From positions 40,784-104,783 of the forward strand of contig CALSSJ010000013.1 in the NCBI GenBank assembly GCA_943788985.1: a stretch of 64,000 bases of DNA, in the 5' to 3' direction. Positions 12,742 through 54,109 of the stretch are shown here, one piece after another (the first letter of the stretch is position 1; every line of letters starts with the position of its first letter). Both the position numbers and the translations under genes were made by a program. Source of the DNA: an uncultured Lentisphaerales bacterium (GTDB lineage: Bacteria > Verrucomicrobiota > Lentisphaeria > JABSQK01 > UBA12247). The notes beneath the pieces are model-generated. The model had not been told where the DNA came from. It did no database searches and saw only the letters and a list, made by a program, of their open reading frames with translations.

Positions 12742-14550
12742 ATGAAGACTCCAACACAAGTGGCGTTGTTGTGCCTTGCCGCGAGCCTGTACGTGACAAC
12801 TGTCGCAAACGCGGGCACGGCCAATTACCGAAACACGGTGTTGGGGGATAGCCCCCTCGTCTATTACGAGTTTGATGAGACCAGCGGCACCACTGCGACC
12901 AATAGCGGGACCCTGGGCGCTACGCATCACGGCACCATCGTCAGCACTGTGGCGCTCAACCAGGCGAGCTTTGCCAAGGGCGGCACTGCCTATGACTTCG
13001 GTGGTGGCTGGGTCGCGGCGGCGGCAGCGGCCTCTTCGTTAACCGAATGGACGGTGGAAGCGTGGATCAACTGGGACTCGACGAAGACCACCAGGTCCCA
13101 CATTTTCGGCAACGACCAAAGCGGCTGGAACGATGATGTTCTGCTTGGAATCGGTGTTGAAGTCGGGGGGCAAGGTGTCCCAGCCAGTAATGTCGGCTGC
13201 ATTCAACAGGGCAGCCCGGGCAGCACTCGCGACTTTGTGACAGAGCCCCTGGCTCACAGTGAGTGGCACCATGTTGTCGCTACCGGCAGTACCACTGCTG
13301 GCGAACTCAAGCTGTACGTCGATGGCGTGCTCGTGGATACGGACAGTTCGCTCGCCAACGGGGTGACATTGAACGGAACGGGTGGCATCGGCTCGCCCTC
13401 TGTTTTTGTGGGGAAAGATGGTTACGCCAATCGCACATTCGACGGACTGATTGACGAATTTGCGCTCTACGACACGGTGCTCGACGCCACGAGGGTGGAG
13501 GCGCACTATGTGGCGGGCCAAACGGAGGTGTTGCTGGTCGATATCGACATCAACGGCACCACGTCGGGCACCGTCCTGAACCAATCGGGCACCGACACGA
13601 TCGTCATCGATGCGAGCAACAGTGGCGACAAGCGGATGACCGTCAATGGATCGCACCTGACGCAGACGCGTGGCGTGGCCATCGCCGTGCCGACGGCGTT
13701 GGGGATCTCCCTACCACGGCAGGTGATCAATGTCACCGGCGAACTGACCAATCCGGGGACATCCGGTTTCCCCGGTATCTGGTTCGCGACAAACGACATC
13801 TCCGGCGGCGGCGCTGAAGCGAACTACGATTTCGCTGTGGCGCATTTTCCATTTTCTGGCGGCTGGATCGCTGGCACGGTGGATCAGGACGGCACCGTCC
13901 TGGCGGGCAACACGACGGACGTCACAATCACCAAGCGATCCGGGGCCGGCGTCACCAGCGGCAACTACTCGCTCGACATCGCCGGCGTGAATCCTTCGAC
14001 CGACGGCTACCTGTTCACCATTGGGGCGCAGAATGAAACCAGCGGCAACTACGCGCCGACTCGCATTCAGCCGGACAATTCCGGGTGGGACATCACCATC
14101 AGCGATCAGGGCGGCGACGCCAATGACGGAACCAACGGCGAGAACGACGACTGGAGTTTCGTCTACATTCCTGAGAACGCTCGTAACCTGATCGCCGGGC
14201 GCATTGACGACGATGCGACCGTGTTGGACAGCGTCGGCAGCTTCAGCGTCGCGTCGCAGCCCACCACCGGCGAGTATCTCTTGACGATCCCGGACGGGGT
14301 GGGCGGGTTCCTGGGCAAAGACGACGGCGTCCTGCTGCTCAACGTGACCAAGGACGGGGCGCCTGCCTTCGATGGCGCCGATGACAACTTCCTGCTTCAG
14401 GCGTACAGCAGTGCGGACGAGGGCTTCATCGTCTCGTCGCACGATCTTGCGGCAGCCAGCGACCAGACCACCGAGTGGTCGTTCGCTTTCCTGCAGTTCG
14501 ACTCGCCGGCGCGCATTCCCGTGCCGGGCGCTGTCATCCTATTGTACTAA
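12742..14550 (+). CDS. Secreted LamG/ConA-like domain protein with short C-terminal PGAVILLY tail
   Basis: Signal peptide; YYEFDETSG, WTVEAWI, WHHVVAT, LYVDG, FDGLIDEFALY; acidic beta-rich C-terminal half. Confidence 0.85.
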   Translation: MKTPTQVALLCLAASLYVTTVANAGTANYRNTVLGDSPLVYYEFDETSGTTATNSGTLGATHHGTIVSTVALNQASFAKGGTAYDFGGGWVAAAAAASSLTEWTVEAWINWDSTKTTRSHIFGNDQSGWNDDVLLGIGVEVGGQGVPASNVGCIQQGSPGSTRDFVTEPLAHSEWHHVVATGSTTAGELKLYVDGVLVDTDSSLANGVTLNGTGGIGSPSVFVGKDGYANRTFDGLIDEFALYDTVLDATRVEAHYVAGQTEVLLVDIDINGTTSGTVLNQSGTDTIVIDASNSGDKRMTVNGSHLTQTRGVAIAVPTALGISLPRQVINVTGELTNPGTSGFPGIWFATNDISGGGAEANYDFAVAHFPFSGGWIAGTVDQDGTVLAGNTTDVTITKRSGAGVTSGNYSLDIAGVNPSTDGYLFTIGAQNETSGNYAPTRIQPDNSGWDITISDQGGDANDGTNGENDDWSFVYIPENARNLIAGRIDDDATVLDSVGSFSVASQPTTGEYLLTIPDGVGGFLGKDDGVLLLNVTKDGAPAFDGADDNFLLQAYSSADEGFIVSSHDLAAASDQTTEWSFAFLQFDSPARIPVPGAVILLY

Positions 14551-14568
14551 TGCCCAGCGGTCGGAGGC

Positions 14569-15658
14569 ATGGCGCATATCGACGGTAGGACATTGCGAAA
14601 GCGATTTACTCTGATCGAATTATTGGTCGTGATCGTCATCATCGCCATACTGGTGTCCCTGCTGCTCCCGGCGCTGTCGCGCGCCAGGTACACAGCTCGG
14701 CTGGCCGCCTGCACTAGTGAGCTCCATCAATGGGGTATTGGCCTCACTGCGTGGGCAGGGGAGCACGACAGTTATCTGCCCGAACGCTCTGTTTACTCGA
14801 ACGGCAATCGGCAGCCACATTTGCTGAAGTCGGGTGGAGCCGATGATCGACAGCTTTTCGACGACGTGCTCGGGCTCCCGCGTACAAACTGTACGTTTGT
14901 TGGCGAGCCCCCTTATGACATCGCTACAGTGGGAGGCCCGTATGTGCTTTCAAGCTATGAATTTTGAGCGGGCGCGGAAATCGACCATAGGCAACCCGCC
15001 TCGAGCATGTTGCGCATTGGCGACACCATGAATTGGACTTCATGCAGCACGAACTATGAGTTTGACATCTTAGGGCCCACGCGGAAATAACGTTACATTT
15101 TGGCGGGAGCGCCGGATGGTCATATGCAAGGCGCGTGGAGCGATGCGTACCCGTAGGTACGTATGCGACACGCAACGCCGCAGATGGCTGTCCGCCGCCC
15201 CGCCCCGCAGGGCAGGGCTGCGACTGTTTTGCCCCCTGGCGGCGTTGCCTCGCTCGAGATATACCTACAGGTATACCCGCTCGCTCGCGCCTTGCCAGGA
15301 ACCAAAACAGCCAGCAGCAAAATGTAACGTAATATCCGCGCGGGCCCTTAGTGGCAGACATGGACCGCACACGTCTGGCGTCCAGTAACTCGGTGATGTC
15401 TTCGCATCCACAGACAGTGCTGGGTTGCTCCCTTTGCAGTTGATAGCCCCCGGATACAAGATCTATACCTACTTCTCATCGGGCGGAGTGCGCGGAACGG
15501 TGGATCGGAACTTCCTTCACTCTGACGGCTCAGTCAGTCGTATGACAAAGGTTCTCGCTCCTACGCCTACCAACTGGGATTCACGGCTCGTACGCGTTCC
15601 CTATCAATCGAACAGGCCTGCCGATTCGCCTTCCGGCTATCTGCCGACGGCTGACTGA
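14569..15658 (+). pseudogene. Prepilin-type N-terminal cleavage/methylation (pseudopilin) gene, disrupted
   Basis: [27 protein letters not shown]...C; in-frame TGA at 14965, MITE insertion at 15073, frameshift near 15410; C-terminal NFLHSDGSV. Confidence 0.85.
15073..15347. mobile_element. 275-bp MITE with 30-bp TIRs and TTA target duplication
   Basis: Left GGGCCCACGCGGAAATAACGTTACATTTTG; right end (reverse complement) GGGCCCGCGCGGATATTACGTTACATTTTG (27/30); TTA at 15070-72 and 15348-50; removal restores FDIL-VADMD. Confidence 0.9.
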
Positions 15659-16284
15659 CTGGCACCGCCCCGCCCCACTCCAACGGTGCCTTTCCTGTCC
15701 TACTGCTGCGGCGATAGTTTTTCTTGGATGGCAGTCGCCAATCTAGATCTCACATCTGGATACGGCCTACCAATCGCCCTGCTTGCACTCTCCCATTTCT
15801 CGCCTAGGTTGGACTGCTTCAGCAACCTCACCGAACGCCTGCCACTAATTCCGCTGGCTGTTCAGATGCCCACTTCTTAGATCGTATTAAACGATCCCCG
15901 CGCCAAACACTGCATAGAGAGGAATTGACAATGACAATATGCCCAATCGCCTTAGTAGCCGGCTGCAAGAAATGTCTGCTATTCAAGGTCTGCCCCTTGA
16001 AAAGTGTCATTGGTGATCACAAGAAACTGGACGAAACGCAAACAAAGCAGCACGCCGAGAACGACGAAAGTAGGGACCAGTAGCCGAAGACGAGGGCATA
16101 AAAAATATTGGAGAACTGAGTCCCTCCTTTTATTTTTCTCCCTTTCATTTTTCTGCCAAATTCTTTTGATTCCCTGAAATAGGACTGGCCCGCGCGGGCG
16201 CAACCTGGGACAGATGTCCCGCTGGCTTAGAGGCTTACAGGCAGAGCCCGACCGACTGGATCGGGGGTGAAACGCAAAATGATT

Positions 16285-16560
16285 GGTCGCCAGCGGTGGC
16301 ATGGTCCTTGCCAGCGATCGGATGATGGATCTCACTGCTGACCACGCAGCTCGCCTTGCCAAGCTGATCCCCCGTCTGGCATCGCAGCCCAGTTCGACGA
16401 CCACACATTTCGCCTAGGACGCATTCCTCATCCCGATGGCGCCATTCTCTGCCTGTTCAACTGGGACGACACCCCGCGCCAGGCAGAACTACCCGCTGGC
16501 AGTTGGACCGTCTTTTGGACCGGCGAGCCAGTCGCGGGACCACTGGCCCTTGCCGCTGCT
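16285..16560 (+). pseudogene. Second GH36-like C-terminal remnant
   Basis: SGGMVLASD followed by a diverged copy of 11929-12100. Confidence 0.6.
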
Positions 16561-16617
16561 TGCAGGCAAGTTAGGGCGTGGCACAGGAATAACTTCAGAT
16601 GCTGCTAACGCGCGGGA

Positions 16618-16914
16618 TTGTGGGAGGCCGGAAGCGATAAAAACTCTGCGGCAACACGCCTGAGGCGCTTGGGCAATCGACCACAGTTTATCAGCCAGGA
16701 GAAAAGTGTGGCGGCCACAAAGACGTATCTTGAGAACGCATGTCCGTCAGGAAATTTCACCTTCCAGGCACTGCCCTTCCCCAATCACACAGATGCCTGG
16801 GTGCTTCGGGATATTCCAGAAAGAAAAGTGATTCGGGATTGGTTCAAGCAAGTTCTTAAAGAAAAAAGCCAGCAGGGCGCTGAAGGCGACGCGGCAAAGC
16901 GCACCGGCTGGTAG
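16618..16914 (+). pseudogene. C-terminal fragment of a hydrolase-like hypothetical protein
   Basis: RLRRLGNRPQFISQE...FPNHTDAWVL; no convincing start; lower GC. Confidence 0.35.
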
Positions 16915-17358
16915 CTTGAACGGTCGCATGAAGGATTTGGGACAAGAATATTTTGAGGACAAGAAAATGGGACTGTGGTTCGGTGCAGCATGTTTGACGT
17001 TGCGCTCCGAATCCAGTTAGTTCGGGCCTATCCCCACGGGATGGTTTGGCCCTTATTTTTCTTGTCCTATCCAAGCTGCAGCTTCCGGAGTCCGTAGGCC
17101 CCGTCCACCACCACACCGTAGCCCCAATCAGGCGCTGCTGCCTGACGGCTATCTATCGCCGCATCAGTAGTCGCGAGTCACTGGTCCCAAAACAAAACTG
17201 GCTGGCTAGCAGATCGTATGAGAAGGCGCGTCATTTTTTAGCGCCAACTGGTTATCCGTTGCGACGCGCGCCTGGTAGGTTACGTCTTTCTTTCTCTGCC
17301 GCTTATCCGAAAGGGCCGTGGCTAAACTCGACCATCCCATCATCCCAGAAGGCGCATC

Positions 17359-20300
17359 GTGCAAATCCAGAAATGCTATCAGTCTAAAGCCCGCGGAAAG
17401 CGAGCCCTCCCCGGGGCCCTGGCCATCCTGTTTATCCTCTGCGCGTTACTGGCCAGTGAAGCGGCAGCAGCACGCAAAAAGGTCCTGTTTATCGCAGGAC
17501 ACCCCAGCCATAGCAATGGTGAACATGAGTTTCGCGCGGGCTGCATGCTGCTGGCTAAGGCGATCAATGATAGTGGCCTAGATATTGAAGCCGTGGTCCA
17601 TTCGTATGACTGGCCTAAAGATGAAAGCATCTTCGAGGGCGTCGACGCGGTGGTGATTTATGCGGATGCGGGCGGGCCGATCCGGAACAAGCTCACCTTT
17701 CTTGATGAGAAAGTAAAGGCGGGCATGGGCATCATGTTCATGCATTACGGTGTGCACCCGCCCAAACAGATTGGCCAAGACTATTTTTTGGACTGGATCG
17801 GCGGCTACTTTGAGACGGGTTGGTCGGTCAATCCCCATTGGATTGCGGACCTGGCCCCGAAGGCCAATCACCCGGTGGGCAATGGTATCGACAAGCCCGT
17901 GAAAGCCTATGACGAGTTCTATTTCAACATGCGCTTTCCCACGGATTGTGACGAGTGCTATCCGCTGGTGACGGCCAGCCCGCAACCAGATCGGATGGTG
18001 CGCTATATCAACCTCTGGAATGAACACGGCGATGCCGCCTTTGGTAAGCCACAGGCGTTGATGTGGTGCAGAGACCCGAAGAGCGGCGGACGCGGAATCG
18101 GTTTCACCGGTGGCCACTACCACAAGAACTGGGCCATTGACGACTTTCGCAAGCTGGCGCTCAACAGCATTGTCTGGCTCGCTCGTGGTGAGGTCCCCGC
18201 AACCGGCGTGCCGTCCCAGCCCCTTACCCAGGAGCACCTCAACGCGAATCTGGACCGGCCAAAGCCCGGCGAGGTCCTGCCCCTGCCGGATGGCTCAGAG
18301 TTGACCCAAAAGCCCATGGCGCGTCCGCAGGACCCGGCCAATTACGGGCGCAAGGGGAAGACCAAGCCGAAAGCGTCTAAGGCGAAGAAGAAGGCACGAA
18401 AATCCAACAAGGCCAAAGCCGCAGCGCCGGATGCCGCCTCGCCCCAGGCTTGGACGCGGCCACTGTTGAGCAGCGACAAAGAGCGATTGGTGCAGGTGGA
18501 ACTGATGGTGAAAGGCCTCAAGGAGATTTATCTAACCGTGGATGACCTGCATGAAGACAGTCATGATTGGGCGGATTGGCTAAACCCGCGGTTTGTCGAT
18601 GCCCAGGGCAAGGAGACGCTTCTCGGGCAATCGCAGATTGTCAAGGCCACGCAAGGCTGGGGAAAACTGAAACACGACATGAGCGTGGGTGGCAAGCCGC
18701 TTAAGGTCGCGGGCAAGACCTACAAACAGGGACTGGGCACGCACGCCCCGTCCAACATCGCTGTGACTGTGCCAAAGGGCGCAGTGAAATTTCTTACCTC
18801 AGTAGGGATCGACGACGGCGGTGCGCTGCGAAACGGTAAGCCGACCCCCGCTGGCATGCGCTTTGGCGTGCTCGCACAACCTTGGAGCGGAAAGAGCGCG
18901 GAGACGGCGGGCAAGCTCACCAGCAAAACGCTCGTTCCTGCGGACTACCTGACCGCGACCGGCGACCTCGAGGTCACGCTCTGGGCCAGTAGCCCACTGC
19001 TCCATAACCCGACCAACATGGACACTGATGCCGATGGCCGCATCTGGGTCGCGGAGGGCGTGAACTATCGCAGGCATGGAAATCGGGCTCCGAAAGGAGA
19101 CCGGATCGTGGTCTTGGAAGACACCAATGGCGATGGCCAGGCCGATACCTCCAGCGTCTTTGTACAAGACCCGGAGTTAGCTGCGCCGCTGGGCGTGAGC
19201 GTCTTTGGCAACAAAATTGTGGTTGCCCAACCACCCAACCTCCTGGTCTATACAGACGTCAATCACAACCGCGTATTCGAGAAAGGCATCGACACCCGCG
19301 AGGTGCTGCTGACTGGCTTCAATGCCAAGCAGCACGATCATTCCCTGCACTCGGTCACCGCTGGCCCCGACGGCCAGTGGTATCTGAACCAAGGCAATTG
19401 CGGCGCAGTCTTTACGGCTACCGACGGGAAGACCTTTCGGCTCGGCAGCCCCTATAAAGGCGGCGGTGGCGAATGGTTCGTGGATCAAAAAGCAGCGGCG
19501 GGCCAGCCCAGCGATGACGGCCATGTCTGGATTGCTGGCTTTATCGCCCGAATGAACCCCGATGGCAGTAATGTCGAAATTGTCGGCCACAACTTCCGCA
19601 ATTCGTACGAAAACACGGTCAACTCCTACGGGGAAGTCTTTCAGAACGACAATGATGACCCGCCCGCTTGCCGCACCTCCTATGTGCTGGAATACGGGAA
19701 CGCCGGCTTCTTTTCAGCAGACGGCAAGCGCACCTGGCAGGTGGATCGCCGTCCCGGCCAATCCACCCCGACCGCACACTGGCGTCAGGAAGACCCCGGC
19801 ACGATGCCGTCTGGGGATGTCTACGGGCGCGGCTCACCCACAGGAATCGCCTTTTATGAGAACGGTGCCTTGCCCACATCCTACCGCGGTACGCTGTTGA
19901 GCGGGCAGGCAGCCCTCCGCTTGATATTTGGCTACCAGCCAGAGCCCGACGGCGCTGGCTACAAACTGGAGCGCTCGCACTTCGTCGCGGCCACTGGCCC
20001 GAAGGATCCGGCTCTGCAAGGCGATAAGGTCTGGTACAACTTTCGGCCGTCGGATGTCATGGTAGGTGCAGATGGCGCGATCTATGTCGCAGATTGGTTT
20101 GACCCGGGGGTTGGCGGACACGGCGATCGTGACGCGGCAACCGCGGGTGCTATCTACCGCATCGCGCCCAAGGGCTTCAAGAGTGCCCCGAAAAAGATCG
20201 ATCTGACGACCTTGGAGGGGGCGGCCACCGCCCTGGAATCACCAGCGGTGAACGTACGCTACGGTGGCTTTGTGGCGCTCCGCGAGCGCGGCGCCGCGGC

Positions 20301-21501
20301 ACTTCCTACCGTGACTAGGTTGATGAAACACGAGAATCCCTGGATTGCGGCGCGCGGTGTCTGGTTGCTGCCGTATCTGGGCGAAGCCGGGCTGGTTCAG
20401 TGTGTTGCCTTGCTTGCCTCGGAGGATCCTTGGCTGCGGCTGACCGCGTACCGTGCGCTGCGCCGGGCCAACCGCCCTATCCTCCCCTACGCTGAGCAAT
20501 TGGCAAGCGATCCGGATCCACGTGTGGGCCGAGATGTCGCCCTTTCCTTGCGCGACGTGCCGCTGGCACAAACGGCCGAGATCTTCCTCAAACTAGCGGA
20601 CCAATGGGACGGCAAGGACCGCACCTATCTCGAGGCACTTGGCCTCGGGCTGGTCAAGCAAGAAGCTCCTTTCTGGGACATGCTAAAAGCCCGCGAGACC
20701 GCCACTGCCAAACAGTGGACGCCCGCGTTCGCACGCCTGACTTGGCGCTTACATCCGCCCGCTGCCTTGCCGTTTCTGCTGCAACGGGCCCAGGCCCTAA
20801 GCCTGAGCAGCGAGGCACGCAAACTCGCGCTCGATACGATCGCCTTTACGCCTGGACCAGAAGCCCCGCGCGCCATGCTGCAGGTCTACGGCGCTGGCGG
20901 CCCAGAGGCCGCCTATGCCAGGATGTGGCTGAATATGCGCTATTTTGGCGGTGGCTGGGATGACCTTATGCCACGCTCAGATGCGGAGGCCGCTGGCGCC
21001 ATCGCACCATTGGCAGTGATCCAACCCATCACAGTGCCACCCAAGCCGAAAGAGCCAAAGCTCCCGCCCATGAAGGAAATCCTAGCGTTGACCGGTGACA
21101 CAGCGAAGGGTAAAATGGTGGCAGCCCGCTGCTACATCTGCCACAAGTTTGACGGCAACGGGATTGCCTACGGTCCCACGCTAGACGGCTGGGGCAAAGC
21201 GCGTTCTCGCGAGGAAGTACTGCGAGCGGTCTATAATCCAGACGCCGCCATCGCACACGGCTACGACGGGTCCAAGATCCTCAGAAGAGGCAAGCCTGAG
21301 CTTCACGGCCGAGTGCTCAACCATGACGACTTTGTGTTGACCGTCCAGTCGACTGGCGGCGTCGTGCAGAAGGTCCGTAGCAAAGACGTCCATCGCATTG
21401 TCCCGCTGAAGCGCAGCCTGATGTTCTATCCCCAGCAACTGGGGCTGACGCAGGCCCAGGACTTCGCTGACCTAGTCAGCTTTCTGCGAGAGCTCAAGTA
21501 A
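17359..21501 (+). CDS. PVC-type heme-binding CxxCH protein (ThuA-like, NPCBM, glucose/sorbosone dehydrogenase-like propeller, HEAT, cytochrome c)
   Basis: KKVLFIAG..SH..GEHE; GLGTHAPS..VGIDD; NPTNMDTDADGRIWVAEGVNYR, HNFRNSYE, FRPSDVMVGADGAIYVADW; CYICH..GPTL. Confidence 0.9.
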   Translation: MQIQKCYQSKARGKRALPGALAILFILCALLASEAAAARKKVLFIAGHPSHSNGEHEFRAGCMLLAKAINDSGLDIEAVVHSYDWPKDESIFEGVDAVVIYADAGGPIRNKLTFLDEKVKAGMGIMFMHYGVHPPKQIGQDYFLDWIGGYFETGWSVNPHWIADLAPKANHPVGNGIDKPVKAYDEFYFNMRFPTDCDECYPLVTASPQPDRMVRYINLWNEHGDAAFGKPQALMWCRDPKSGGRGIGFTGGHYHKNWAIDDFRKLALNSIVWLARGEVPATGVPSQPLTQEHLNANLDRPKPGEVLPLPDGSELTQKPMARPQDPANYGRKGKTKPKASKAKKKARKSNKAKAAAPDAASPQAWTRPLLSSDKERLVQVELMVKGLKEIYLTVDDLHEDSHDWADWLNPRFVDAQGKETLLGQSQIVKATQGWGKLKHDMSVGGKPLKVAGKTYKQGLGTHAPSNIAVTVPKGAVKFLTSVGIDDGGALRNGKPTPAGMRFGVLAQPWSGKSAETAGKLTSKTLVPADYLTATGDLEVTLWASSPLLHNPTNMDTDADGRIWVAEGVNYRRHGNRAPKGDRIVVLEDTNGDGQADTSSVFVQDPELAAPLGVSVFGNKIVVAQPPNLLVYTDVNHNRVFEKGIDTREVLLTGFNAKQHDHSLHSVTAGPDGQWYLNQGNCGAVFTATDGKTFRLGSPYKGGGGEWFVDQKAAAGQPSDDGHVWIAGFIARMNPDGSNVEIVGHNFRNSYENTVNSYGEVFQNDNDDPPACRTSYVLEYGNAGFFSADGKRTWQVDRRPGQSTPTAHWRQEDPGTMPSGDVYGRGSPTGIAFYENGALPTSYRGTLLSGQAALRLIFGYQPEPDGAGYKLERSHFVAATGPKDPALQGDKVWYNFRPSDVMVGADGAIYVADWFDPGVGGHGDRDAATAGAIYRIAPKGFKSAPKKIDLTTLEGAATALESPAVNVRYGGFVALRERGAAALPTVTRLMKHENPWIAARGVWLLPYLGEAGLVQCVALLASEDPWLRLTAYRALRRANRPILPYAEQLASDPDPRVGRDVALSLRDVPLAQTAEIFLKLADQWDGKDRTYLEALGLGLVKQEAPFWDMLKARETATAKQWTPAFARLTWRLHPPAALPFLLQRAQALSLSSEARKLALDTIAFTPGPEAPRAMLQVYGAGGPEAAYARMWLNMRYFGGGWDDLMPRSDAEAAGAIAPLAVIQPITVPPKPKEPKLPPMKEILALTGDTAKGKMVAARCYICHKFDGNGIAYGPTLDGWGKARSREEVLRAVYNPDAAIAHGYDGSKILRRGKPELHGRVLNHDDFVLTVQSTGGVVQKVRSKDVHRIVPLKRSLMFYPQQLGLTQAQDFADLVSFLRELK

Positions 21502-21701
21502 GCCGGGCCTAATGCGGCGGCTCAAGCGCGCGGTTGATGTGTTCGGACTAGCGACCAGCGATTGGCGACCAACGATTTTTAAGGAGTTCGTCGATCAGTC
21601 ATCCCCGTCACCGCGTCTATTCTGCGCATCGCTGGTCGTGAGTCGCTAGTCGAAAAAAAAAGAAAACAACTGCCACCACGAGCTCCAGCACGCTCCACAC
21701 A

Positions 21702-22382: not shown

Positions 22383-22827
22383 ATCCGGCGCGCCCAGTCT
22401 CCCGTAACGCGCTCCGGTCCCATTTCTTCGGGGGCAGCAGGTGCTGGATCGTCTTCAACGCTTGGCTGAAGTCAAAGTGAACTGTGATACCGTTGGCCGG
22501 CTTGTAGCGTCCTAGGTCATGTCTTGGGTTGGATGCGTTATGACAGCGGATGCAGAGCTTGCAACTGCCGCGATGCCCGCGTTACATTGGCTGGGGCTGC
22601 CTACCTGTCCGGCGCCAATCCAGCCACGCTCATTTCGCCCTGATCCCTTGAATCCTGTACTCCGCCAGCCTATGTTCGCGGTAGCGCGAAAAGTCTTGCG
22701 CTTGCCGTTGCCTGAATTCGTTCCTTGAATGACAACATTCATCCCCGTCTTATTAGATAACTTTATCGGGTTGCCAGTCACTAGCCCGGCTTTCCGCGTT
22801 GTGATTGTGCACGGAGGTGCGGCGAAA

Positions 22828-23892
22828 ATGCGAGTGAATGCCCACATACAAGCGATCGGAACCGCAGTGCCCCCATGGCGCTACGATCAGCTCGAACTGG
22901 CAACCAGCCTCGCAACAATCCTGGGCGTTCCAAGGTCGAGCCGGATCCTAGCAGAGCTTGCCCGAAATACGGCAATAGCGAGCCGCTACTCCGTACTGCC
23001 CGACTTCTCGCCTACCTGCCAAGAGCCTCTGCTCTATGGCCAGGAAGCTCCTACCACCGCGACCCGCAATCGGATCTATGAGCAGTTGGCCGCACCACTA
23101 GCCGCCCGGGCCGCCAGTGCAACCCTTGCCAGCGCCAAAATCTCGGCCTGCGAGGTCACTCACCTAATTACCGTCTCCTGTACTGGCTTCTCTGCACCAG
23201 GCATCGATGTCGGCCTGATCCATTCCCTGAAACTCGCCCCACATGTGCAACGGTTTCACTTGGGTTTCATGGGCTGCTTCGCTGGTCTTCCGGCGTTGCA
23301 TCTGGCCTCTCAGATTGTCATCGCGCAGCCAGGCGCGGTGGTCCTAGTGGTTTGCTGCGAGCTGTGCTCGCTGCACTTTCAGCCAACCAACGAGCGCAAC
23401 AATCTACTCTCCGCCAGCATTTTTGCAGATGGTGCGGGGGCCGCACTAGTGAGTGCCGATCCCACGGGCCCTTTTCGCCTCGGCACCCACGGTTCAATCC
23501 TTATCCCCGACAGCACAGGTGCCATGTCCTGGCAAGTTGGCGATACCGGCTTTATCATGGGATTGTCGCGCGAAGTGCCACGACTGATCAGCGACGGACT
23601 GCGCACCCGGCTCGCCGCAGCCGACGGGCCGCTGTTTACCACCCCGGAAGCACTCATTTGGGCCGTACATCCAGGCGGCGCTGCCATCCTCGAGGCATGC
23701 GCCACCGGCCTGAGCCTCCCCACGACGGCACTGGCAAATTCCTATCGGGTCCTCCGCGACTACGGCAATCTCAGCAGCGCCACGATTCTCTTTGTGCTCA
23801 AAGAACTGCTGGCCGACAACCGAACAGGCCCCGGCTGCGCCCTCGCCTTTGGCCCCGGCCTCACAGCAAACTGGCTCACCTTTCACCGATGA
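22828..23892 (+). CDS. Type III polyketide synthase
   Basis: Cys-His-Asn triad in MGCFAG, WAVHPGG, YGNLSSAT; ELCSLHF, FADGA, AFGPGL; RBS GGAGGT upstream. Confidence 0.95.
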   Translation: MRVNAHIQAIGTAVPPWRYDQLELATSLATILGVPRSSRILAELARNTAIASRYSVLPDFSPTCQEPLLYGQEAPTTATRNRIYEQLAAPLAARAASATLASAKISACEVTHLITVSCTGFSAPGIDVGLIHSLKLAPHVQRFHLGFMGCFAGLPALHLASQIVIAQPGAVVLVVCCELCSLHFQPTNERNNLLSASIFADGAGAALVSADPTGPFRLGTHGSILIPDSTGAMSWQVGDTGFIMGLSREVPRLISDGLRTRLAAADGPLFTTPEALIWAVHPGGAAILEACATGLSLPTTALANSYRVLRDYGNLSSATILFVLKELLADNRTGPGCALAFGPGLTANWLTFHR

Positions 23893-25653: not shown

Positions 25654-25659
25654 AAGCAA

Positions 25660-27183: not shown

Positions 27184-27312
27184 TGTGGCATCCTTCTAAA
27201 TAGTGCGGCACATACCAATACAAAGAAAGTTGAGCATTGTAAACCGTGCATCCATGCCGAATTTGGCCAAAATCATGAGTAATTTGGTAGACCTGAGTCA
27301 AAACTCGGTCAG

Positions 27313-30940: not shown

Positions 30941-30949
30941 CCCACCAGA

Positions 30950-35951: not shown

Positions 35952-35953
35952 AA

Positions 35954-42296: not shown

Positions 42297-42427
42297 GGGT
42301 CACCGCGTTTCAATTTGGGACCGCCGTTGTCTCTGCGAAAAGACCCGTCAATTTTATCGACATCACTGATTGCATTTTTGGTGTTATCGCGTGGCGTCCT
42401 CCTGTTAACCGGAGATTAATAAAGGAA

Positions 42428-43450: not shown

Positions 43451-43492
43451 GCTCTAACGCGACCTTGACCCGGCCGAATTTTCTCCAAGAGC

Positions 43493-46400: not shown

Positions 46401-46510
46401 GATTTCACGAACACGGCCTCCACCGGCGTGCTACAAACGCTGACCGCCTGAAGTGCCAGGCACAGGGCTGCAGCCGAAGCCGCAAAAGATGGAAAAAGGC
46501 GGGGATTCAT
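43493..46510 (-). CDS. Secreted protein: discoidin (F5/8-like) domain plus uncharacterised propeller-like body with internal duplication
   Basis: Signal peptide; AGNAVDG..SRWVS..WL; ECGIGGIIPWADKLW, PGYHGKG; two homologous halves. Confidence 0.8.
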   Translation of the reverse strand: MNPRLFPSFAASAAALCLALQAVSVCSTPVEAVFVKSVAASSVLAGYTAGNAVDGQVSDRSRWVSAKSDQPHWLIAEFGKPVGIAGVHLYSGWRAGQAISALELEYRKAGAWQKVPGGAVSDNTQMRLAIAFGEVVTTDALRLVSSADQIRVRELVVWPAGTELPRLGTGVSEDAALVPEPPAAMPERPNHETYESSLGRGGSEVRFAPVKNEAQMVSASGTRLISGVYPHFTTYSQSRKDGRFFKKAHQECGIGGIIPWADKLWMITYAPHQPLGSDHKLYSIDAELTMTIHAESVGGTPAARMIHEESEQLFIAHYAIDKQGKIRVIDPKKMPARVTAIMRHLVDPANYVYLYDMENMFYEVNVHSLEFTRLFEDPIPGYHGKGGFTAQGKVVVSNNGETGGKLDHRGLWQVPASYKKKGPEDRGCLATFDGSTWEVIERRQYTEVTGPQGVAPTAEGKNDPVWAIGWDKRSLRLQVMEDGAFTTFLLPKGCLNNDAEHGWFTEWPRIRDIGQDALMMDMHGLFFAFPKRFTAGNCAGIEPIASHIRYIPDFCSWNGQLVLATDEASIQGNPLVGQPQSNLWFGKFEDLKQWGPRNGAGSIYMNDPIGAGVASAPFLMNGFPRCVVHLAADRPVSYTLQIDKNGDGSFSDYKTFEVDGYRAHLLPEDFAAQWIRVTANRDCNATVSFHLTDDTYQNAAAGAELFQAVAELDDQTVTSALLFPAKRNRHLRVINGDSWYDFTKFGFDFQATHADAGLKKKLTVRPEFEVDDASVILISHENRAIVGKKGNRTVLRLPKGSDRYDRPFEFGHPRMHREIESERMMANIHGTFYEVPFWIVGQPALYTKMRPVCSHNKQISDFTTWNGLLVLAGLKADAQESNHVYKSADGGTSLWLGGIDDLWKLGKPVGVGGPWKDTAVTAGVPSDPYLMTGYDQKTLELSANQDCAITVAVDIDHWTGFHTYQTFQVEAGRTLTHKFPEGYAAHWVRVTADKDVTATAWFVYQ

Positions 46511-46740
46511 GAGACTCCCTTCTGGGTGCTTAACAGGGACCACACAGAAAACTACCGTCGCGAGCGTCCCAGTACAAACCGGCACACTTACTCGTTTCCC
46601 TCAATCTGCTTATAGATTTTCATCATAGGAACCGTCAAGGTGCGGCATCCGGAAAAAAGACGATTCAGGGCGAAAGATTATGGTGAGAGATTAAGGTGAA
46701 ACAATCTGGGACACTGCTTTTCGGCCCTAGCCCTCTCCGC

Positions 46741-47622
46741 CTACCCCGGCATCTTGTCGCGTATATACTCCCGCGGCGACTGCTCGGAGAGCTTCTTGAA
46801 CCACTTGGAAAAATGCGATAAGTAGGAAAATCCGAGTTCGATCGCAACTTCATTGGCCCGAACGTCGGGCATCCGCAGACGCCGGTAGGCATAGTCGATT
46901 CGACGGTTTTCAAAGTACTGCCTGGGTGTGGTCTGGAGGTCGTGATGGCAGAGCCGCGTGAGGTGCACCAAGCTCAGGCCGACTTGGCGGGCCAGCGCTT
47001 CCTGGTTCAGCGGCTCCCCCAGCGGATGGCTGTCGAGCAGATTCACGGCCTTCATCACGCGCTCGTCAATGTTCGTCCGGCCCCCCGGGGTGATGCCATG
47101 GGCGATCAGGATTTCTACCAGGATCAGAAACCAGTCGTTCAGACTGCGCTCGAGTTGCAGAAACTGGCGGTAGTCGACTGGATGCTTCCGGGCGTCCCAT
47201 TGGTCGTCTGGGACGTGGCTCATTATTCGCGCCATCGGCTTGGCCTTGCATTCCAGGGCCGGATGTTCATGGGCGTCGATCACTAAGGGCAGGCCTTTGT
47301 CCAGCCAGTGGGTCCCATCGGGCCAGGCTGCTTCGAAGGAGACCGACAGCAGATGGCTGTCGACGGCAAAGGACTGCGAGCGTTGCCCGGGCTTGACGAT
47401 TAACCATTGCCCGGGATTTGCCCGGAAGACCTGGTCGCCATAGGTCACCTGAGCCCAGCCGGAGCGGACCAGCCAGGCACCGTTATTCCCGTACTCGCTG
47501 CTGCGATGGACCGGGCCCTGCTCTCGGTCGCAGAAAATGGCATGATCATAGCACCAGAGCAAATGCGCCCGTAAGTTCAGCCAGTCGCGATACAGGATGT
47601 GCTTGGTCCTTGCCAGTGTCAT
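46741..47622 (-). CDS. AraC-family transcriptional regulator
   Basis: LARQVGLSLVHLTRL, TPRQY, EVAIELGFSYLSHFSKWFKK..SPREY. Confidence 0.93.
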   Translation of the reverse strand: MTLARTKHILYRDWLNLRAHLLWCYDHAIFCDREQGPVHRSSEYGNNGAWLVRSGWAQVTYGDQVFRANPGQWLIVKPGQRSQSFAVDSHLLSVSFEAAWPDGTHWLDKGLPLVIDAHEHPALECKAKPMARIMSHVPDDQWDARKHPVDYRQFLQLERSLNDWFLILVEILIAHGITPGGRTNIDERVMKAVNLLDSHPLGEPLNQEALARQVGLSLVHLTRLCHHDLQTTPRQYFENRRIDYAYRRLRMPDVRANEVAIELGFSYLSHFSKWFKKLSEQSPREYIRDKMPG

Positions 47623-47778
47623 GAGGCAGATTCCTGGTCTTCAGGGTTCGGGGCTGGACATGGATGAAAAAGTATAAGCTTTTGAGAAGAAGATGCAAAT
47701 GTAGCCGTTTGTCCCAGCCGGGTCATCAGAGTAGTTTTTACTGCATGATCTCAACGCAGCTTACTCTGGATACATCTC

Positions 47779-49137
47779 ATGAAGAAGTGCTTCTTCCAAA
47801 ATTCCGCCGCGGCGGTCGCCACACTTTGCCTGGTGTTCCACGCAACCATCCTATCGGCAGTCCCGGTGGCATTGAATTCAGAGAAGGAATCTTTTATTCG
47901 CCAAAGCCAGGCCACGACCAATCAGGGGCAAGCTCGCCTGCTCTTCGGTGGCCAAGGCACAAGCGCGCAGTTTCGAACGATGATGCAATTCTCGCTGGAT
48001 GACCTAGTGGCCGCCACTGGCGGCGGAAATGTGATCATCAATTCTGTCTCGCTGGATACCGGCGATTCTTTTGTAAAGTCTGGAACGTTTGGTGGAGACG
48101 CCACCTATGATGCCTACTCTTGGTCTGTCAATGACTTCGATGTCGCGGACAACACCTGGAACGATCCGCAGGGTAGTCTCGGCACAGACGGTCCTGGGGC
48201 GACCCTCGGGACCAAACTGGCAAGTGAGGTCTTTGGTGCCGGCACTCCTGAGGGTGATTTCGTCTTTCCCTCGGCAGCGCCCTTCATCGCCTTCGTCCAG
48301 GGAGCCTATGACAGCTACACAGCAGGCGACAAACTGAACCTGCTTCTGGTCATTGAGAACACCGCCCTAAACCACTTTGCGCGCACTGATTCTGGCGCCG
48401 TAACCGGCATTGGCACAGCTGCTCTCACCATTGACTTTTCTGTTGATGCCAGAGCCGTTCTCGTCACAGAAAATTTTCAAGACGCCTTGACCGGCACATC
48501 TGCCGAAACCTTTCACGCGGATGTCACTGCCGCCGGTGGATCTGCCAGCTGGGGAGCATCCAGCCGCTTCACAGCGAACGGTGTCGTCGACGGTGCGGTC
48601 GGAACTGGCGATCGCTGTGGCTATCTCAATCTCGGTTCCTACATCAATGATACGAAAGGACGGGGCGATGGTCTGTTTGAGCTGACGATGACGATCTCGG
48701 AGGTAGGCGGGAATGCCGCCGGAGACCTGATCGCGCTTGGGTTCTCGGCGAAAAGTACCGCACCTAATATCGGCGGTGACTTTGTCAATCAGACCGGGAT
48801 TGGCACCATTGCCTATCGTCAGAGTGGCGAACTCGACATGTGGGGCGGGAGCGGGGTCGCTAACGGAGTTGACGGGCCTAATGGCAACAGTGGGCCCCGG
48901 GTACTGACGGCGGCTCTGGATCTCACCCCAGCAGGCGGGTATGACGGGGCGACTAATTTTGGGACGGTCAGTTGGTCAGACGGTGCTCTAGGAGCACTTG
49001 GGACTCACACCTTTACCGCCGCTACGGACTTTAATTGGATCTTGCTTTCATCCAGGAGCGATGCGTCCGGTACGATCAGTAGCTTGTCCCTGAAGCAGCA
49101 AGCCTTTATCCCGGGCGCAATTATTCTTGTCAGGTAA
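47779..49137 (+). CDS. Secreted acidic beta-rich protein with short C-terminal PGAIILVR tail
   Basis: Signal peptide; DNRLRE-like N-terminal region (ESFIR..TTNQG..MMQFSL..INSVSL..NTWN); G/T/D-rich. Confidence 0.8.
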   Translation: MKKCFFQNSAAAVATLCLVFHATILSAVPVALNSEKESFIRQSQATTNQGQARLLFGGQGTSAQFRTMMQFSLDDLVAATGGGNVIINSVSLDTGDSFVKSGTFGGDATYDAYSWSVNDFDVADNTWNDPQGSLGTDGPGATLGTKLASEVFGAGTPEGDFVFPSAAPFIAFVQGAYDSYTAGDKLNLLLVIENTALNHFARTDSGAVTGIGTAALTIDFSVDARAVLVTENFQDALTGTSAETFHADVTAAGGSASWGASSRFTANGVVDGAVGTGDRCGYLNLGSYINDTKGRGDGLFELTMTISEVGGNAAGDLIALGFSAKSTAPNIGGDFVNQTGIGTIAYRQSGELDMWGGSGVANGVDGPNGNSGPRVLTAALDLTPAGGYDGATNFGTVSWSDGALGALGTHTFTAATDFNWILLSSRSDASGTISSLSLKQQAFIPGAIILVR

Positions 49138-49160
49138 CGCACTGTCACACGGAGGCGCTG

Positions 49161-50858
49161 ATGCCAGCCGCTGATTGGACCATTCTATCCCTCTATCTCG
49201 CTAGCACGGTGTTTGTCGGCGTGTTCCTGGGACGCTTTGTAAAAAATGCGTCGGACATGTTCGCGGCTGGCGGTCAGTCGCCGTGGTGGCTCAGTGGGCT
49301 GAGCGCCTTCATGACCATGTTTTCGGCCAATACCTTTGTAGTCTGGGGCGGCATTGCCTATCAACACGGGGTGGTGGCGATCGCCATCAATCTCTGCTAC
49401 GGGATTGCGGCAATCGCAGCCGGCTACACGGTCGCGGGCAAGTGGAAGGCCATGGGCATCGAGACCCCAGCCGACTACATCGAGACCCGCTTCGGGCGCC
49501 CAGCACTGCATTTCTACACCTGGTTTATGATGGTGTTCCGGATCGTGGGTACCGGCGGCGCGCTCTATGCCATTGCCCGGCTGACGCTTGCGGTAATGAG
49601 CGGTGGCGGCAGTGCTGGAGACGGGGCCCTAACCGGCGCTGACCTGAACACCGCGATCCTGGTCTTTGCCCTGATCGTGGTCGGCTATACCATGATCGGC
49701 GGCTTGTGGGCGGTGCTGATGACCGACACGCTCCAATTTATCATCCTCAATCTGGCCGTGCTATTTGTCATCCCCCTGGCACTGGCGCGTACTGGTGGCT
49801 TCTCGACCTTTCTCGAAAAGGCACCAGACGGTTTTCTGGCGGTCACCAACGACAAATACACCTTTCTTTTCCTGGCTGGCTGGGTGGCGATCCACTACTT
49901 CATGATTGGCGCGGAGTGGGCGTTTGTGCAGCGCTTTCTCTGCGTGCCCTCGCCCAAGGATGCCCGCAAAAGCACCTTTCTGTTTGGCGGGCTCTATCTG
50001 TTCAGTCCTTTCCTCTGGCTGCTGCCGCCTCTGCTCTGGCGAGTACAATCCCCGATTCCAGAAGGCGCAAGCCCGGAGACCGTGACTCGAATGGCGGAGA
50101 CCGCCTACATCCTCTCCTGCAAGGCCGTGCTGCCGATCGGCATGCTCGGGCTGATGCTCGCCGCCCTGTTCTCGGCCACCGCCAGCATGATCAGCTCGCA
50201 GCTGAACGTGTTCTCTGGCGTGCTCACCGAAAACATCTACAAGCCACTTGCCCAAAACCCGTCCGAAAAGCGGCTGGTCCATATGGGGCGGGTGTTCACG
50301 CTGGTGCTCGGGATCATCGTGGCCCTGGTGGCTATCGCCACACCGTATCTTGGGGGCGCGGCCAAAGTCATCATCTCCGTGACCCAGGTTATGGTCACGC
50401 CGCTGTTGGCGCCTACTCTACTGGCGCTGTTCATTCCACGGCTGGGTGTGAACACGATCTGGGCGACGGTCGGAATCTGCTTCCCGCTCGGTCTCTTGAC
50501 TAAGTTCACCACGGTGCTGGAGAATACCTGGCTGGCCGACAGTACGGTCACCGGAGTTTTCCTGCCCTTGGCCGTGATCGCTGTCATGCTCCTGCTGTCT
50601 CGCAAAGAAGCTCCGGGCTGGGCTGGAGTCCGCGAGTTGGAGGCGCAGGCAGCCGGGCGAGACCAACCGCAATCGAGCGCCTTTCCGGCTTTGATAGTCA
50701 GCATCAGCCTCGTGCTTTCTGCGATCACGCTATTGGCTTTAATTCCACTAAACGACGCCAACCACGGACTGCTTGTGGGTTTCGCGGTCGTGCTGCTGAT
50801 CCTGGCAGCGCTGTTGTTCTGGCTGGCGAAACGCATGAAAGGACAAGAATCGGCATGA
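49161..50858 (+). CDS. Sodium:solute symporter (SSS) family transporter
   Basis: AAGGQSPWW..GLS, YIETRFG, GGLWAVLMTDTLQF, VQRFL, GLMLAALFSATAS. Confidence 0.95.
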   Translation: MPAADWTILSLYLASTVFVGVFLGRFVKNASDMFAAGGQSPWWLSGLSAFMTMFSANTFVVWGGIAYQHGVVAIAINLCYGIAAIAAGYTVAGKWKAMGIETPADYIETRFGRPALHFYTWFMMVFRIVGTGGALYAIARLTLAVMSGGGSAGDGALTGADLNTAILVFALIVVGYTMIGGLWAVLMTDTLQFIILNLAVLFVIPLALARTGGFSTFLEKAPDGFLAVTNDKYTFLFLAGWVAIHYFMIGAEWAFVQRFLCVPSPKDARKSTFLFGGLYLFSPFLWLLPPLLWRVQSPIPEGASPETVTRMAETAYILSCKAVLPIGMLGLMLAALFSATASMISSQLNVFSGVLTENIYKPLAQNPSEKRLVHMGRVFTLVLGIIVALVAIATPYLGGAAKVIISVTQVMVTPLLAPTLLALFIPRLGVNTIWATVGICFPLGLLTKFTTVLENTWLADSTVTGVFLPLAVIAVMLLLSRKEAPGWAGVRELEAQAAGRDQPQSSAFPALIVSISLVLSAITLLALIPLNDANHGLLVGFAVVLLILAALLFWLAKRMKGQESA

Positions 50859-53137
50859 TTAGAGCAGACGCAATCGCGGGGATGCGCGAACTTCGCAACG
50901 AGACACTAGCGGTCGATTTCGCGGTCATTGGTGGTGGCCTGGCCGGGGTCTGCGCGGCGGTAACCGCCGCGCGCCAGGGGCTGCAGGTCGTCTTAGTCCA
51001 AGATCGTCCGGTGCTAGGCGGAAACTCATCAAGCGAGGTACGGCTGTGGGCTCTGGGTGCCACCTCGCATCAGGGCAACAACAACCGCTGGGCCCGCGAA
51101 GGGGGCCTGGTCGACGAGATTCTGGTCGAGAACATGTACCGCAACAAGGAGGGCAACCCGGTCATCTTCGACACGGTGCTACTAGACCTCGTGACGCGAG
51201 AGCCCAACCTCCGCCTGCTGCTCAATACTGCCGTCTACGACGTCGAGAAGTCGGCCCCCGACACCATCGCCAGCGTGACGGGATTTTGCAGCCAGAATTC
51301 TACCCGCTACAGGGTCGAGGCGCCCTATTTCTGTGATGCATCCGGAGACGGCATTGTCGGCTTTCAGGCTGGGGCCGCGTTTCGCATGGGCGCCGAGAAA
51401 CCCGAGGAGTTTGGCGAGGGCTTCGCTCCAGATGAGGGGTATGGCGAGTTGCTCGGCCACACCATCTATTTCTACAGCAAGGATACCGGTAAACCGATTC
51501 AATTTGTCGCACCGGAATACGCGCTGAAAGACATCGCCGAGATTCCACGCTATCGCTGGTTCAATGTCCGGGACCACGGCTGCTGTCTGTGGTGGCTCGA
51601 ATACGGCGGCCGGCGCGACACCGTCCACGACACTGAAGAGATCAAGTGGGAGCTGTGGAAAGTCGTCTACGGGGTTTGGGACCATATCAAGAACTCCGGC
51701 GAGTTTCCCGAGGCCGAGAATCTGACCCTAGAATGGGTCGGGACCATCCCGGGAAAACGCGAGAGTCGCCGCTTCGAGGGCGACCACATGCTCACCCAGC
51801 AGGACGTGATCGAGCAACGCGTACACCCGGATGCAGTCGCGGTCGGCGGTTGGTCCCTGGACCTGCACCCGTCCGACGCGATCTACAGTGAGAAGACGCC
51901 GTGCAATCAGTGGCACAGCAAGGGCGTCTACGGCATTCCCTACCGCTGCTCCTACAGCCGTAATATCAGTAACCTCTTTCTTGCTGGGCGCATCATCAGC
52001 GCTTCGCATGTCGCCTTTGGCTCGAGCCGCGTGATGCTGACCTGTGCCCATGGTGCCACGGCGGTCGGCATGGCTGCGGCCCACTGCCAACGCGACGGCC
52101 TACTCCCCCGCGGCCTGACCGAACCAGAACGCATGACGGCGCTACAAACCGCGCTCAATCGAGCCGGACAAGGTATCTCGGGCGTACCACTCGCGGGCGA
52201 CGGCGACCTTGCGGAGTCCGCAACGCTGACGGCCTCCTCGACCTATGAGTTGACTGCGCTCGCCGCAGATGGCATCTGGCTGGATCTTACCTGCCCCGTA
52301 GCGCAGATGCTGCCGCTGGCGCCCGAGGACCGCCCTACCCTGTCCTTGACGGTGCGCGCCGCCGAGCCTTGCCAATTGCGCATCGCACTGCAGGTAAGCG
52401 ATAAAGTCGCGAACTTCACCCCGGAGACAACCCTCTGTGAGCAGGCCTTTGCGCTATCCGCGGGAGAGCAGATCATCGCCTTCCCCATCGGCACCAGCGT
52501 CGATACACCGCGCTACGGCTTCCTCTGCCTCTATGGCGACGAGAGCATCGAAGTCGCCTGCTCGCAACAGCGCCTCACCGGCCTACTCAGCGTGCGAAAG
52601 CGATTCAACAAAGCGGTATCCAACTTTGGCGAACAGGTCCCGCCCGACGGGATCGGGATCGAGCGCTTTGAGTTCTGGACACCAGCTCGCCGTCCGGACG
52701 GGCACAATCTCGCCCTCCAGTTGTCGACGCCGCTCAAGGCGTTCGACGCCTCACAGCTGCGCAGCGGCTGGTTCCGACCCACAACAGCCACAAATGCTTG
52801 GGCCGCAAGCCCGGACGATCCGAGCCCACGACTTGATTTCCGGTGGAACACAGCACAAAGAATCGGCGAAATCGTACTGCACTTCGACGCGGATTGGGAC
52901 CATGCCATGGAGACGGCCCAATATGGCCACCCTGAGAACGTGATGCCATTCTGTGTGCGCGACTACGTGATCCGCGATGCCGACGGCACAGAACTGCACC
53001 GTTGCTCCGGCAACTACCAGACCATCAATCGCATCCGCTTCGCCGAACCTGTTGACACCCGAGCCATCTCCATCGAACTAGCACACCCATCGAGGCAGGT
53101 TTCCGCGTCTCTATTTGGCGTCCGAGTTTATTCATAA
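50855..53137 (+). CDS. FAD-dependent oxidoreductase (FAD_oxidored family) with C-terminal beta domain
   Basis: GGGLAGVCAA, DRPVLGGNSSSE, DASGDG, GKRESRR, IPYRC, AGRIISASHVAFGSSRVM. Confidence 0.93.
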   Translation: MIRADAIAGMRELRNETLAVDFAVIGGGLAGVCAAVTAARQGLQVVLVQDRPVLGGNSSSEVRLWALGATSHQGNNNRWAREGGLVDEILVENMYRNKEGNPVIFDTVLLDLVTREPNLRLLLNTAVYDVEKSAPDTIASVTGFCSQNSTRYRVEAPYFCDASGDGIVGFQAGAAFRMGAEKPEEFGEGFAPDEGYGELLGHTIYFYSKDTGKPIQFVAPEYALKDIAEIPRYRWFNVRDHGCCLWWLEYGGRRDTVHDTEEIKWELWKVVYGVWDHIKNSGEFPEAENLTLEWVGTIPGKRESRRFEGDHMLTQQDVIEQRVHPDAVAVGGWSLDLHPSDAIYSEKTPCNQWHSKGVYGIPYRCSYSRNISNLFLAGRIISASHVAFGSSRVMLTCAHGATAVGMAAAHCQRDGLLPRGLTEPERMTALQTALNRAGQGISGVPLAGDGDLAESATLTASSTYELTALAADGIWLDLTCPVAQMLPLAPEDRPTLSLTVRAAEPCQLRIALQVSDKVANFTPETTLCEQAFALSAGEQIIAFPIGTSVDTPRYGFLCLYGDESIEVACSQQRLTGLLSVRKRFNKAVSNFGEQVPPDGIGIERFEFWTPARRPDGHNLALQLSTPLKAFDASQLRSGWFRPTTATNAWAASPDDPSPRLDFRWNTAQRIGEIVLHFDADWDHAMETAQYGHPENVMPFCVRDYVIRDADGTELHRCSGNYQTINRIRFAEPVDTRAISIELAHPSRQVSASLFGVRVYS

Positions 53138-53245
53138 ACTCGCTGAAATGATGACGATCGCTTTGTGATCTCAGTTTGATTTCCAGATGGAATTGGACCA
53201 TAGTGCATACGCTCGACTCTCCCTGTATTAATCACCGGGCACATT

Positions 53246-54109
53246 ATGATGCACCCCCGTTACCAGCATTTTCAATTAACTTCTCAGCGACACAAAACGA
53301 CCGGCACGTCCGCGTTCACGTTGATCGAGCTGCTGGTTGTGATCATGATTATCACCATTCTTGCCTCGCTGCTATTGCCCTCGCTGGCGAACGCTAGGCA
53401 GAGCGGTAGGAAATCCGCTTGCGTGTCCAATTTGCGCCAGCTCGCCTTGACCCTCACGATGTATACCGGCGACAATGTCGACCAATACCCGACAACGGGC
53501 TGGGGCCCCCTTGGCCGGATAGTCTGGGACGACTTGGTCGCCGGCTACGATGGCCGCCCGGCATTACCACGCTACGGACGCCTGTTTGCCGACCAGGCCT
53601 CCGCTCTGCTGACTCGCACCACTTGGGGCGAGAAATACGGCGAGGTCTACAAGTGCCCGGATGACACTCTCCAAAGTTTCTATGGGACCAGCACCGACAC
53701 CTATGCGCGCTCTTACTCGATCACCTCGTTGGTCCTGTTTCCCGTTGCTGGCTATGAGGCTGCCAACCATCTTGGGATTTCCGGCTACGCCACCAGTACC
53801 GGCCAGAAGCTAACGCGTAAAAGCAGCGGACTCGTCAAACCAAGCGAAACCATCGTCCTGTCGGAGTATCATAGTCCTTCGAATTTTCTCGGCAACGGCT
53901 GGCAACATAGCGCTGCAGCATACACCATCGAAAATCGCCAGCTCAGCGGCTATTGGGCTCATGGTCGATCGGCAAACTATCTGATCGCTGATGGCCATGT
54001 TGAGGCACCGGACTTTTATGACACCCTGGCCACGCCGGACGGCTCTGTGTCCAGCCCTGCCAGCAGCGTCGCTGACACCATGTGGGACTCAAGCCCCGGC
54101 AGAGACTGA
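53246..54109 (+). CDS. Prepilin-type N-terminal cleavage/methylation protein with H-X9-DG domain
   Basis: [51 protein letters not shown]. Confidence 0.93.

Follow-up and report, generated by a model that had tools for sequence, protein, structure and literature searches.

Here we describe a short C-terminal protein segment, hereafter the tail, which ends two genes in a 64,000-nucleotide stretch of the genome of an uncultured Lentisphaerales bacterium (GenBank assembly GCA_943788985.1, contig CALSSJ010000013.1, positions 40,784 to 104,783). We refer to this stretch as the window and count positions from its first letter; genomes and contigs elsewhere carry our working numbers (G and C). The tail is probably a non-covalent surface tag free of any membrane helix, carried by unrelated signal-peptide proteins at the very junction where their homologs carry PEP-CTERM. 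Its motif, as read from the sequences of its carriers, is Gly-x-x-hydrophobic-x-hydrophobic-Arg, placed exactly at the C-terminus. An initial annotation of the window had reported the endings P-G-A-V-I-L-L-Y in the 12742 protein (12742–14550) and P-G-A-I-I-L-V-R in the 47779 protein (47779–49137), each directly before the stop, and both are indeed encoded there. The PGA pattern drawn from them does not hold: position -8, counted back from the last residue, can also be K, S or G, and position -6 can be T, L, V or S, so that neither Pro nor Ala is conserved.

Both proteins have signal-peptide-like N-termini, in agreement with their annotation as secreted, and the LamG domain claimed for the first corresponds to PF13385. 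It is likewise correct that the tail has neither a transmembrane helix nor a basic cluster, given its seven residues and single Arg. The 47779 protein gave no Pfam match. A high-confidence model of its C-terminal domain predicts a β-sandwich, weakly similar to concanavalin A (ConA) lectins and to SPRY domains, and leaves the last 11 residues outside the modeled domain, with the predicted local distance difference test score (pLDDT) falling from about 98 to 68 and 49. The first tail is identical in contigs of four marine or estuary sequencing runs, one of them an RNA run, from three studies.

Across the genome (4.58 Mb, 83.6% complete), 19 out of 144,741 stop-to-stop frames finish with the pattern G-[TASVL]-[VIL]-[IVL]-x-[IVLF]-R, as against one to three when it is shifted 1–7 residues from the stop. 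A relaxed pattern ends 11 frames among those longer than 200 residues, as against 0–2 when shifted. Both patterns were derived from the hits of the very genome in which they were tested, and the loosest pattern ends 10 of 2647 genes here, as against 1–7 when shifted. After inspection, with a likely hydrolase of poor motif match (C5:100850) excluded, ten carriers were classed as intact and nine as broken or remnant, one of the latter uncertain; the motif is thus not confined to the two window proteins. All ten intact carriers look non-enzymatic and are rich in Gly, Thr, Ser, Ala and Asn. Nine of them pass a crude signal-peptide test, and a comparison of the ten with one another gave a single weak cross-hit only.

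What points to an anchoring role is the exchange of the tail with PEP-CTERM in the families of both window proteins. Residues 262–602 of the 12742 protein have 20 non-self homologs, of which 17 terminate in PEP-CTERM (immediately behind the shared domain in 13 cases), one in a tail variant and two in other ways. One of the PEP-CTERM homologs is 86% identical over this region, and the relative ending in the tail variant 91%. Among 149 homologs of the 47779 protein, 89 end in PEP-CTERM (by regular expression) and about nine in the tail (five by regular expression, four by eye), including one from a named Kiritimatiellae; the remainder have dockerin-like repeats or other ends, or are fragments. 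In two of these homologs (P0140 and P0155), a PEP-like remnant precedes the tail, the junctions reading IPEPPKGTVILLQ and IPESAKGMVLTVR. The tail carriers are scattered over a tree of the shared domain, on which a few PEP labels are errors of the regular expression. In a tree of 30 of the 130 rows (five direct tail carriers and 25 of the 85 PEP-labeled rows, hand-picked after the first tree had been viewed), the five direct carriers need at least three changes, and a single tail clade is rejected (p-AU 9.25e-5). Furthermore, 2 of 22 proteins scanned have the tail immediately behind a choice-of-anchor Q domain. With these swaps, with the enrichment among signal-peptide proteins described below and with no library model matching the tail, the earlier idea of a short export or attachment signal free of a transmembrane helix, in place of PEP-CTERM, is supported.

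This genome, at 83.6% completeness, yielded no PEP-CTERM match (PF07589). A match to an EpsH-type exosortase is broken by internal stops (C2:119888-120343), and three further short exosortase-like matches lie on C14, C12 and C36. Across genomes, the trend is inverse, with 0–7 PEP-CTERM matches in tail-rich genomes and 0–106 in others. As a separate observation, homologs of the 47779 protein (P0030, P0038, P0042, P0046, P0072, P0075 and others) often end in another recurring short segment, with F[YF]R[VL] or FARF, which is possibly a further anchor that lacks a library model.

The tail is concentrated outside the class of its host. On the DNA level, its pattern has 10 matches in this genome and 0–4 in each of 150 other genomes of the class, while 17 of 300 other genomes of the phylum, all outside this class, are tail-rich (5–18 matches; controls 0–3). 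Apparent excesses elsewhere largely dissolved on inspection: real tail genes were found at none of 30 loci in G286 and G158, at none of 18 in G058, G090 and G307, and at 3 of 12 in G320 and G178. We infer that the tail-rich genomes are Kiritimatiellia, as, of six neighbors taken from named records, five are nearer to G260 than they are to this genome; one named Kiritimatiellae genome has 66 tail matches, as against 4 for controls. In G260 (1.51 of about 2.1 Mb), G-x-x-h-x-h-[RK], with h for hydrophobic, ends 33 of 891 complete open reading frames (ORFs), as against 0–3 when shifted, and 30 of these 33 are signal-like, compared with 320 of the 858 others (37%). This bears out the predicted enrichment in signal-peptide proteins. 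It is such other genomes that support the motif independently of the patterns derived here. In an exact scan of all species, 80 loci among the matches listed comprised 26 Kiritimatiellia-type exported proteins by reading (11 from named Kiritimatiellae or Kiritimatiellia), 11 resembling type B substrates of type IX secretion (T9SS), 18 small membrane proteins of Actinomycetota and 25 other or chance matches. The 18 matches from Solirubrobacterales were rejected as tail carriers, being small membrane proteins that share the same letters but are unrelated.

The initial annotation had also placed a prepilin-type gene downstream of each tail gene and proposed that the tail works with H-X9-DG pseudopilins. 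Such genes do start at 14569 and 53246, but the first is a pseudogene, with an in-frame TGA at 14965, an insertion at 15069–15351 resembling a miniature inverted-repeat transposable element (MITE), and then a frameshift, and the second lies 4.1 kb past its tail gene, as the last gene in the order AraC, tail gene, symporter, oxidoreductase, pilin. The 53246 protein has the signature H239-X9-D249-G250; TIGR04294, which we take to be the name of the H-X9-DG family, was not among its profile matches. An assembly error was considered as the cause of the broken pilin and rejected, as the TGA and both insertion junctions are kept in contigs of four runs from three studies. Two runs have an additional 1-nt deletion at 14795, and the MITE-like element has further insertion sites in other runs. 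Contigs from RNA runs cover the first tail locus, which is no demonstration of transcription.

The adjacency is real in this genome: 8 of the 19 tail sites have a pilin no more than 5 kb away, compared with a background of 6–8% and with 10 of 61 for sulfatases (p 0.03), and 3 of the 19 immediately precede one (p 1e-5). It does not depend on the tail, however, and it scarcely recurs in other tail-rich genomes, two sets of tail loci from which had the pilin motif at 1 locus out of 26 and at none out of 38. H-X9-DG pilins number one to three in the 17 tail-rich genomes and up to 153 in genomes of the window's own class without tail excess. In one genome without tail excess (G091), a pilin lies on the same strand, 600 nt away or less, for 41 of 89 PEP-CTERM genes, as against 0.6% by chance; these 89 are the ones, out of 112, on contigs covered by 100 of the 122 pilins (those listed). 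Because PEP-CTERM genes show the same adjacency, the cassette is best described as surface cargo followed by pilin, in which the tail fills the anchor slot. The pilin gene goes with the cargo gene and not with the tail, whichever anchor the cargo has.

The tail resembles the signals of the PEP-CTERM/exosortase (PF07589, PF09721), GlyGly-CTERM and MYXO-CTERM systems in that it occupies the extreme C-terminus, occurs in many copies per genome and is carried by signal-peptide proteins that are otherwise non-homologous. With PEP-CTERM, it shares the cargo families and the junction as well as the gene slot before H-X9-DG pilins, but it differs in its seven residues and in lacking a transmembrane helix and a basic cluster (one Arg). 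A cognate intramembrane protease was not found in this genome (83.6% complete), where the EpsH-type match is broken and the three other exosortase-like matches are short. Tripartite C-terminal surface signals described in diderm bacteria need a membrane helix and a protease; one study (10.1101/2023.06.07.544157) gives criteria for such signals and assigns GlyGly-CTERM and MYXO-CTERM proteins to the route through type II secretion (T2SS). The tail is also akin to the anchors that follow choice-of-anchor domains (NF041518), where a cargo domain precedes an interchangeable anchor; it directly follows such a domain and is not among the anchors with a library model. The neighboring pilin genes belong to the DUF1559/H-X9-DG family (PF07596), members of which follow surface-cargo genes in sugar-use loci and whose numbers across genomes run counter to those of the tail, this genome being the exception. 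DUF1559 is of unknown function according to PMC2754498.

On the reading of the tail as a surface tag, its carriers would be exported by Sec, as their signal peptides suggest, and would fold, as the model predicts, into lectin-like β-sandwiches that leave the tail free. They may then cross the outer membrane through a general secretin machine of the T2SS or type IV pilus (T4P) type, as for GlyGly-CTERM and MYXO-CTERM proteins; secretins are present. At the surface, the conservation pattern and the anchor swapping suggest non-covalent retention, in which the predicted free β-strand would add to an envelope receptor by means of Gly(-7), the residues at -4 and -2 and the terminal Arg. The H-X9-DG pilin gene, which gene order places with the cargo gene under either anchor, would belong to the same nutrient-capture cassette.

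Several observations weigh against this reading. No conserved neighbor family stood out among 485 ORFs at 63 tail loci, no convincing receptor candidate emerged from 453 reciprocal best hits with 72% of G260, and a receptor or processing enzyme of the tail was not found. With 9 of 19 tail sites broken, compared with 7 of 34 pilins (p 0.06) and 13 of 61 sulfatases (p 0.04) in a crude comparison that is not like-for-like, the tail system may be decaying in this genome. Many tail-rich genomes retain some PEP-CTERM proteins, so that the two systems are not exclusive, and 15 of 36 comparison genomes have neither a PEP-CTERM match nor a tail excess. Finally, the structural model of the 47779 protein is biased by PEP-CTERM rows in its alignment.

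Alternatively, the tail might be a translocation signal rather than an anchor, that is, a strand read by a T2SS or tight adherence (Tad) machine or by an Omp85 protein, after which the cargo is released or otherwise held. The hydrophobic register at -4 and -2 accords with this, the tail also fitting what we take to be the β-signal spacing, G-x-x-h-x-h plus one Arg, and some carriers resemble autotransporter passengers (TIGR02601) with no barrel after the repeats. Secretins and BamA were each found in all five tail genomes tested; the Tad protein CpaB was present in every one of 18 tail-rich genomes, compared with 13 of 36 others. CpaB is nevertheless background, because 135 of the 301 genomes compared across the phylum carry it, most of them showing no excess of the tail, which leaves Tad rejected as a dedicated partner and a weak lead at most. 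A second Omp85-like match was present in only three of the five genomes, and the partners with which the tail is swapped, PEP-CTERM and dockerin-like repeats, are retention devices. We consider a translocation signal unlikely. A further alternative, which we regard as highly improbable, takes the tail for the isolated last strand of a type B sorting domain of T9SS, recognized by a T9SS-like shuttle. The two share the last seven residues G-x-x-x-x-h-R: among 27 type B ends recovered from 30 loci, Gly stands at -7 in 25 and Arg at -1 in 21, and position -2 is hydrophobic; by our reading, 11 of the 80 loci above were type B domains ending in these seven letters, and TIGR04131 fell just below the cut-off in the two of them that were scanned. 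T9SS signals are, however, folded domains. The type B domain (TIGR04131) comprises about 85 residues with a register of -5/-3, whereas the tail is free, with a register of -4/-2, and none of the tail proteins scanned has this domain above the cut-off. The tail pattern fits 8 of the 27 type B ends and the type B pattern 2 of 36 tails. As for the machinery, SprA did not exceed the cut-off in any of 20 tail genomes (84–99% complete where given), with two Bacteroidota controls positive, PorP/SprF was not found in the six genomes searched, and weak PorV matches, absent from this genome, proved FadL-like, on which grounds T9SS was dismissed. Type B substrates do offer a parallel, being bound non-covalently to a carrier at the surface according to two reports (PMC12618676, PMC12635249).

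A different objection is that the tail functions in Kiritimatiellia and is mere baggage here, on horizontally gained genes under loss. In line with this, the genome is the only clear carrier among 151 of its class, the excesses of three class-mates being the 18 chance loci mentioned above, and nearly half of its tail sites are broken. On the other hand, ten unrelated genes retain tail and signal peptide intact, the tails have a style of their own in this genome (GAVILVR, GTVIRFR), it has no PEP-CTERM protein to take over the role, and its other accessory genes are likewise often broken. We find this explanation distinctly improbable, and still more so the dedicated sorting module of the initial annotation, in which the tail binds a cognate H-X9-DG pseudopilin. 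The pilin adjacency in this genome speaks for such a module; one to three pilins for tens of tails per genome, mostly pilin-free tail loci elsewhere and the stronger adjacency of PEP-CTERM genes largely refute it at the genome level, and the pilin beside the first tail is dead while its tail gene is intact.

The reading of the tail as a surface tag can be taken further: the seven-residue free strand might be a complete, enzyme-free address for surface display, recognized by a secretin-type (T2SS/Tad) machine or by its receptor. It would then have taken the place of the PEP-CTERM lipid anchor on many occasions, those in cargo-pilin nutrient-capture cassettes among them. We put this forward only tentatively. 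If true, the tail would be, to our knowledge, the shortest outer-membrane sorting signal. How secretin-type machines recognize their substrates is a long-standing question, for which the tail would then provide a portable linear signal.

No NCBIfam or Pfam model matches the tail in the two window proteins or in 20 further tail proteins. The literature searched, which leaves out most subscription journals, showed neither a description of the tail nor a paper naming both Kiritimatiellia and PEP-CTERM. We regard as new the presence of the tail in a genome of a class other than Kiritimatiellia, where it fills the PEP-CTERM slot, the swaps seen in the families of the two window proteins (in one family with more than one origin), the difference in register from type B domains, and the observation that the pilin follows the cargo rather than the tail. 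The exchange with PEP-CTERM points to an unrecognized route of surface display in abundant gut and marine polysaccharide degraders. With the tail as a mark, tens of proteins per genome could be recognized as surface cargo; it could also serve as a minimal peptide bait for its receptor. This genome is a natural experiment: it carries the tail away from the tail's main lineage, yielded no PEP-CTERM match and has kept the cargo-pilin cassette.

Table 1. Features of the two tail loci in the window.
Feature	Position	Strand	Remarks
Predicted secreted acidic protein with LamG (PF13385) and an unnamed second domain, tail at the end	12742..14550	+	alternative start 12703; 17 of 20 homologs end in PEP-CTERM
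Tail 1, P-G-A-V-I-L-L-Y-stop	14524..14550	+	Gly at -7; Tyr where Arg is usual
5' part of broken H-X9-DG-type prepilin gene, TGA at 14965-14967	14569..14967	+	TIGR02532 above cut-off
MITE-like insertion inside the pilin pseudogene, 283 nt, 34-nt inverted ends	15069..15351	.	related copies on 11 contigs of the genome
3' pilin remnant with DG motif (NFLHSDGSV), other frame	15425..15658	+	
AraC-family regulator (PF12833), divergent from the 47779 tail gene	46741..47622	-	
Predicted secreted acidic two-domain protein with tail; second domain predicted as ConA/lectin-like β-sandwich	47779..49137	+	
Tail 2, P-G-A-I-I-L-V-R-stop	49111..49137	+	outside the folded domain in the model
Sodium:solute symporter	49161..50858	+	profile match
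FAD-dependent oxidoreductase (PF12831)	50855..53137	+	
Intact DUF1559/H-X9-DG-type prepilin-like protein	53246..54109	+	TIGR02532 above cut-off

Some further observations concern secretion genes. A conserved Tad-like cluster (C13:1742-5967, C7:396-2604) encodes an ATPase with an N-terminal part that appears FHA-like by eye, and no secretin was seen alongside it. CpaB was not found in the three largest sampled families of the phylum (f34, f36 and f38). Two single cases involve tail genes directly: in G155 (C3:420357-424254), a tail gene is closely preceded by a secretin match in the same orientation, and in G288, a tail gene stands directly upstream of cpaB. The window's genome also encodes a 1,630-residue protein whose N-terminal part is long and whose C-terminal part matches Omp85 weakly (C10:335193-340085), weak matches of this sort being present in G155 and G343 too.

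Accessory genes are often frameshifted or truncated throughout this genome, with 7 of 34 pilin starts and 13 of 61 sulfatase motifs on short frames, and the breaks at the one locus compared recur in other runs. Giant ORFs of 10,006 residues (C23:144893-174913), 6,488 residues (C18:116237-135703) and 3,300–4,100 residues (C5, C10, C19 and C41) are present as well, none with a clear tail. Marker families of the Planctomycetes-Verrucomicrobia-Chlamydiae (PVC) group are present. Elsewhere in the window, a heme-binding CxxCH protein of the PVC type, which has ThuA and NPCBM domains, is encoded at 17359–21501, and a type III polyketide synthase at 22729–23892, beside a FAD-binding enzyme.

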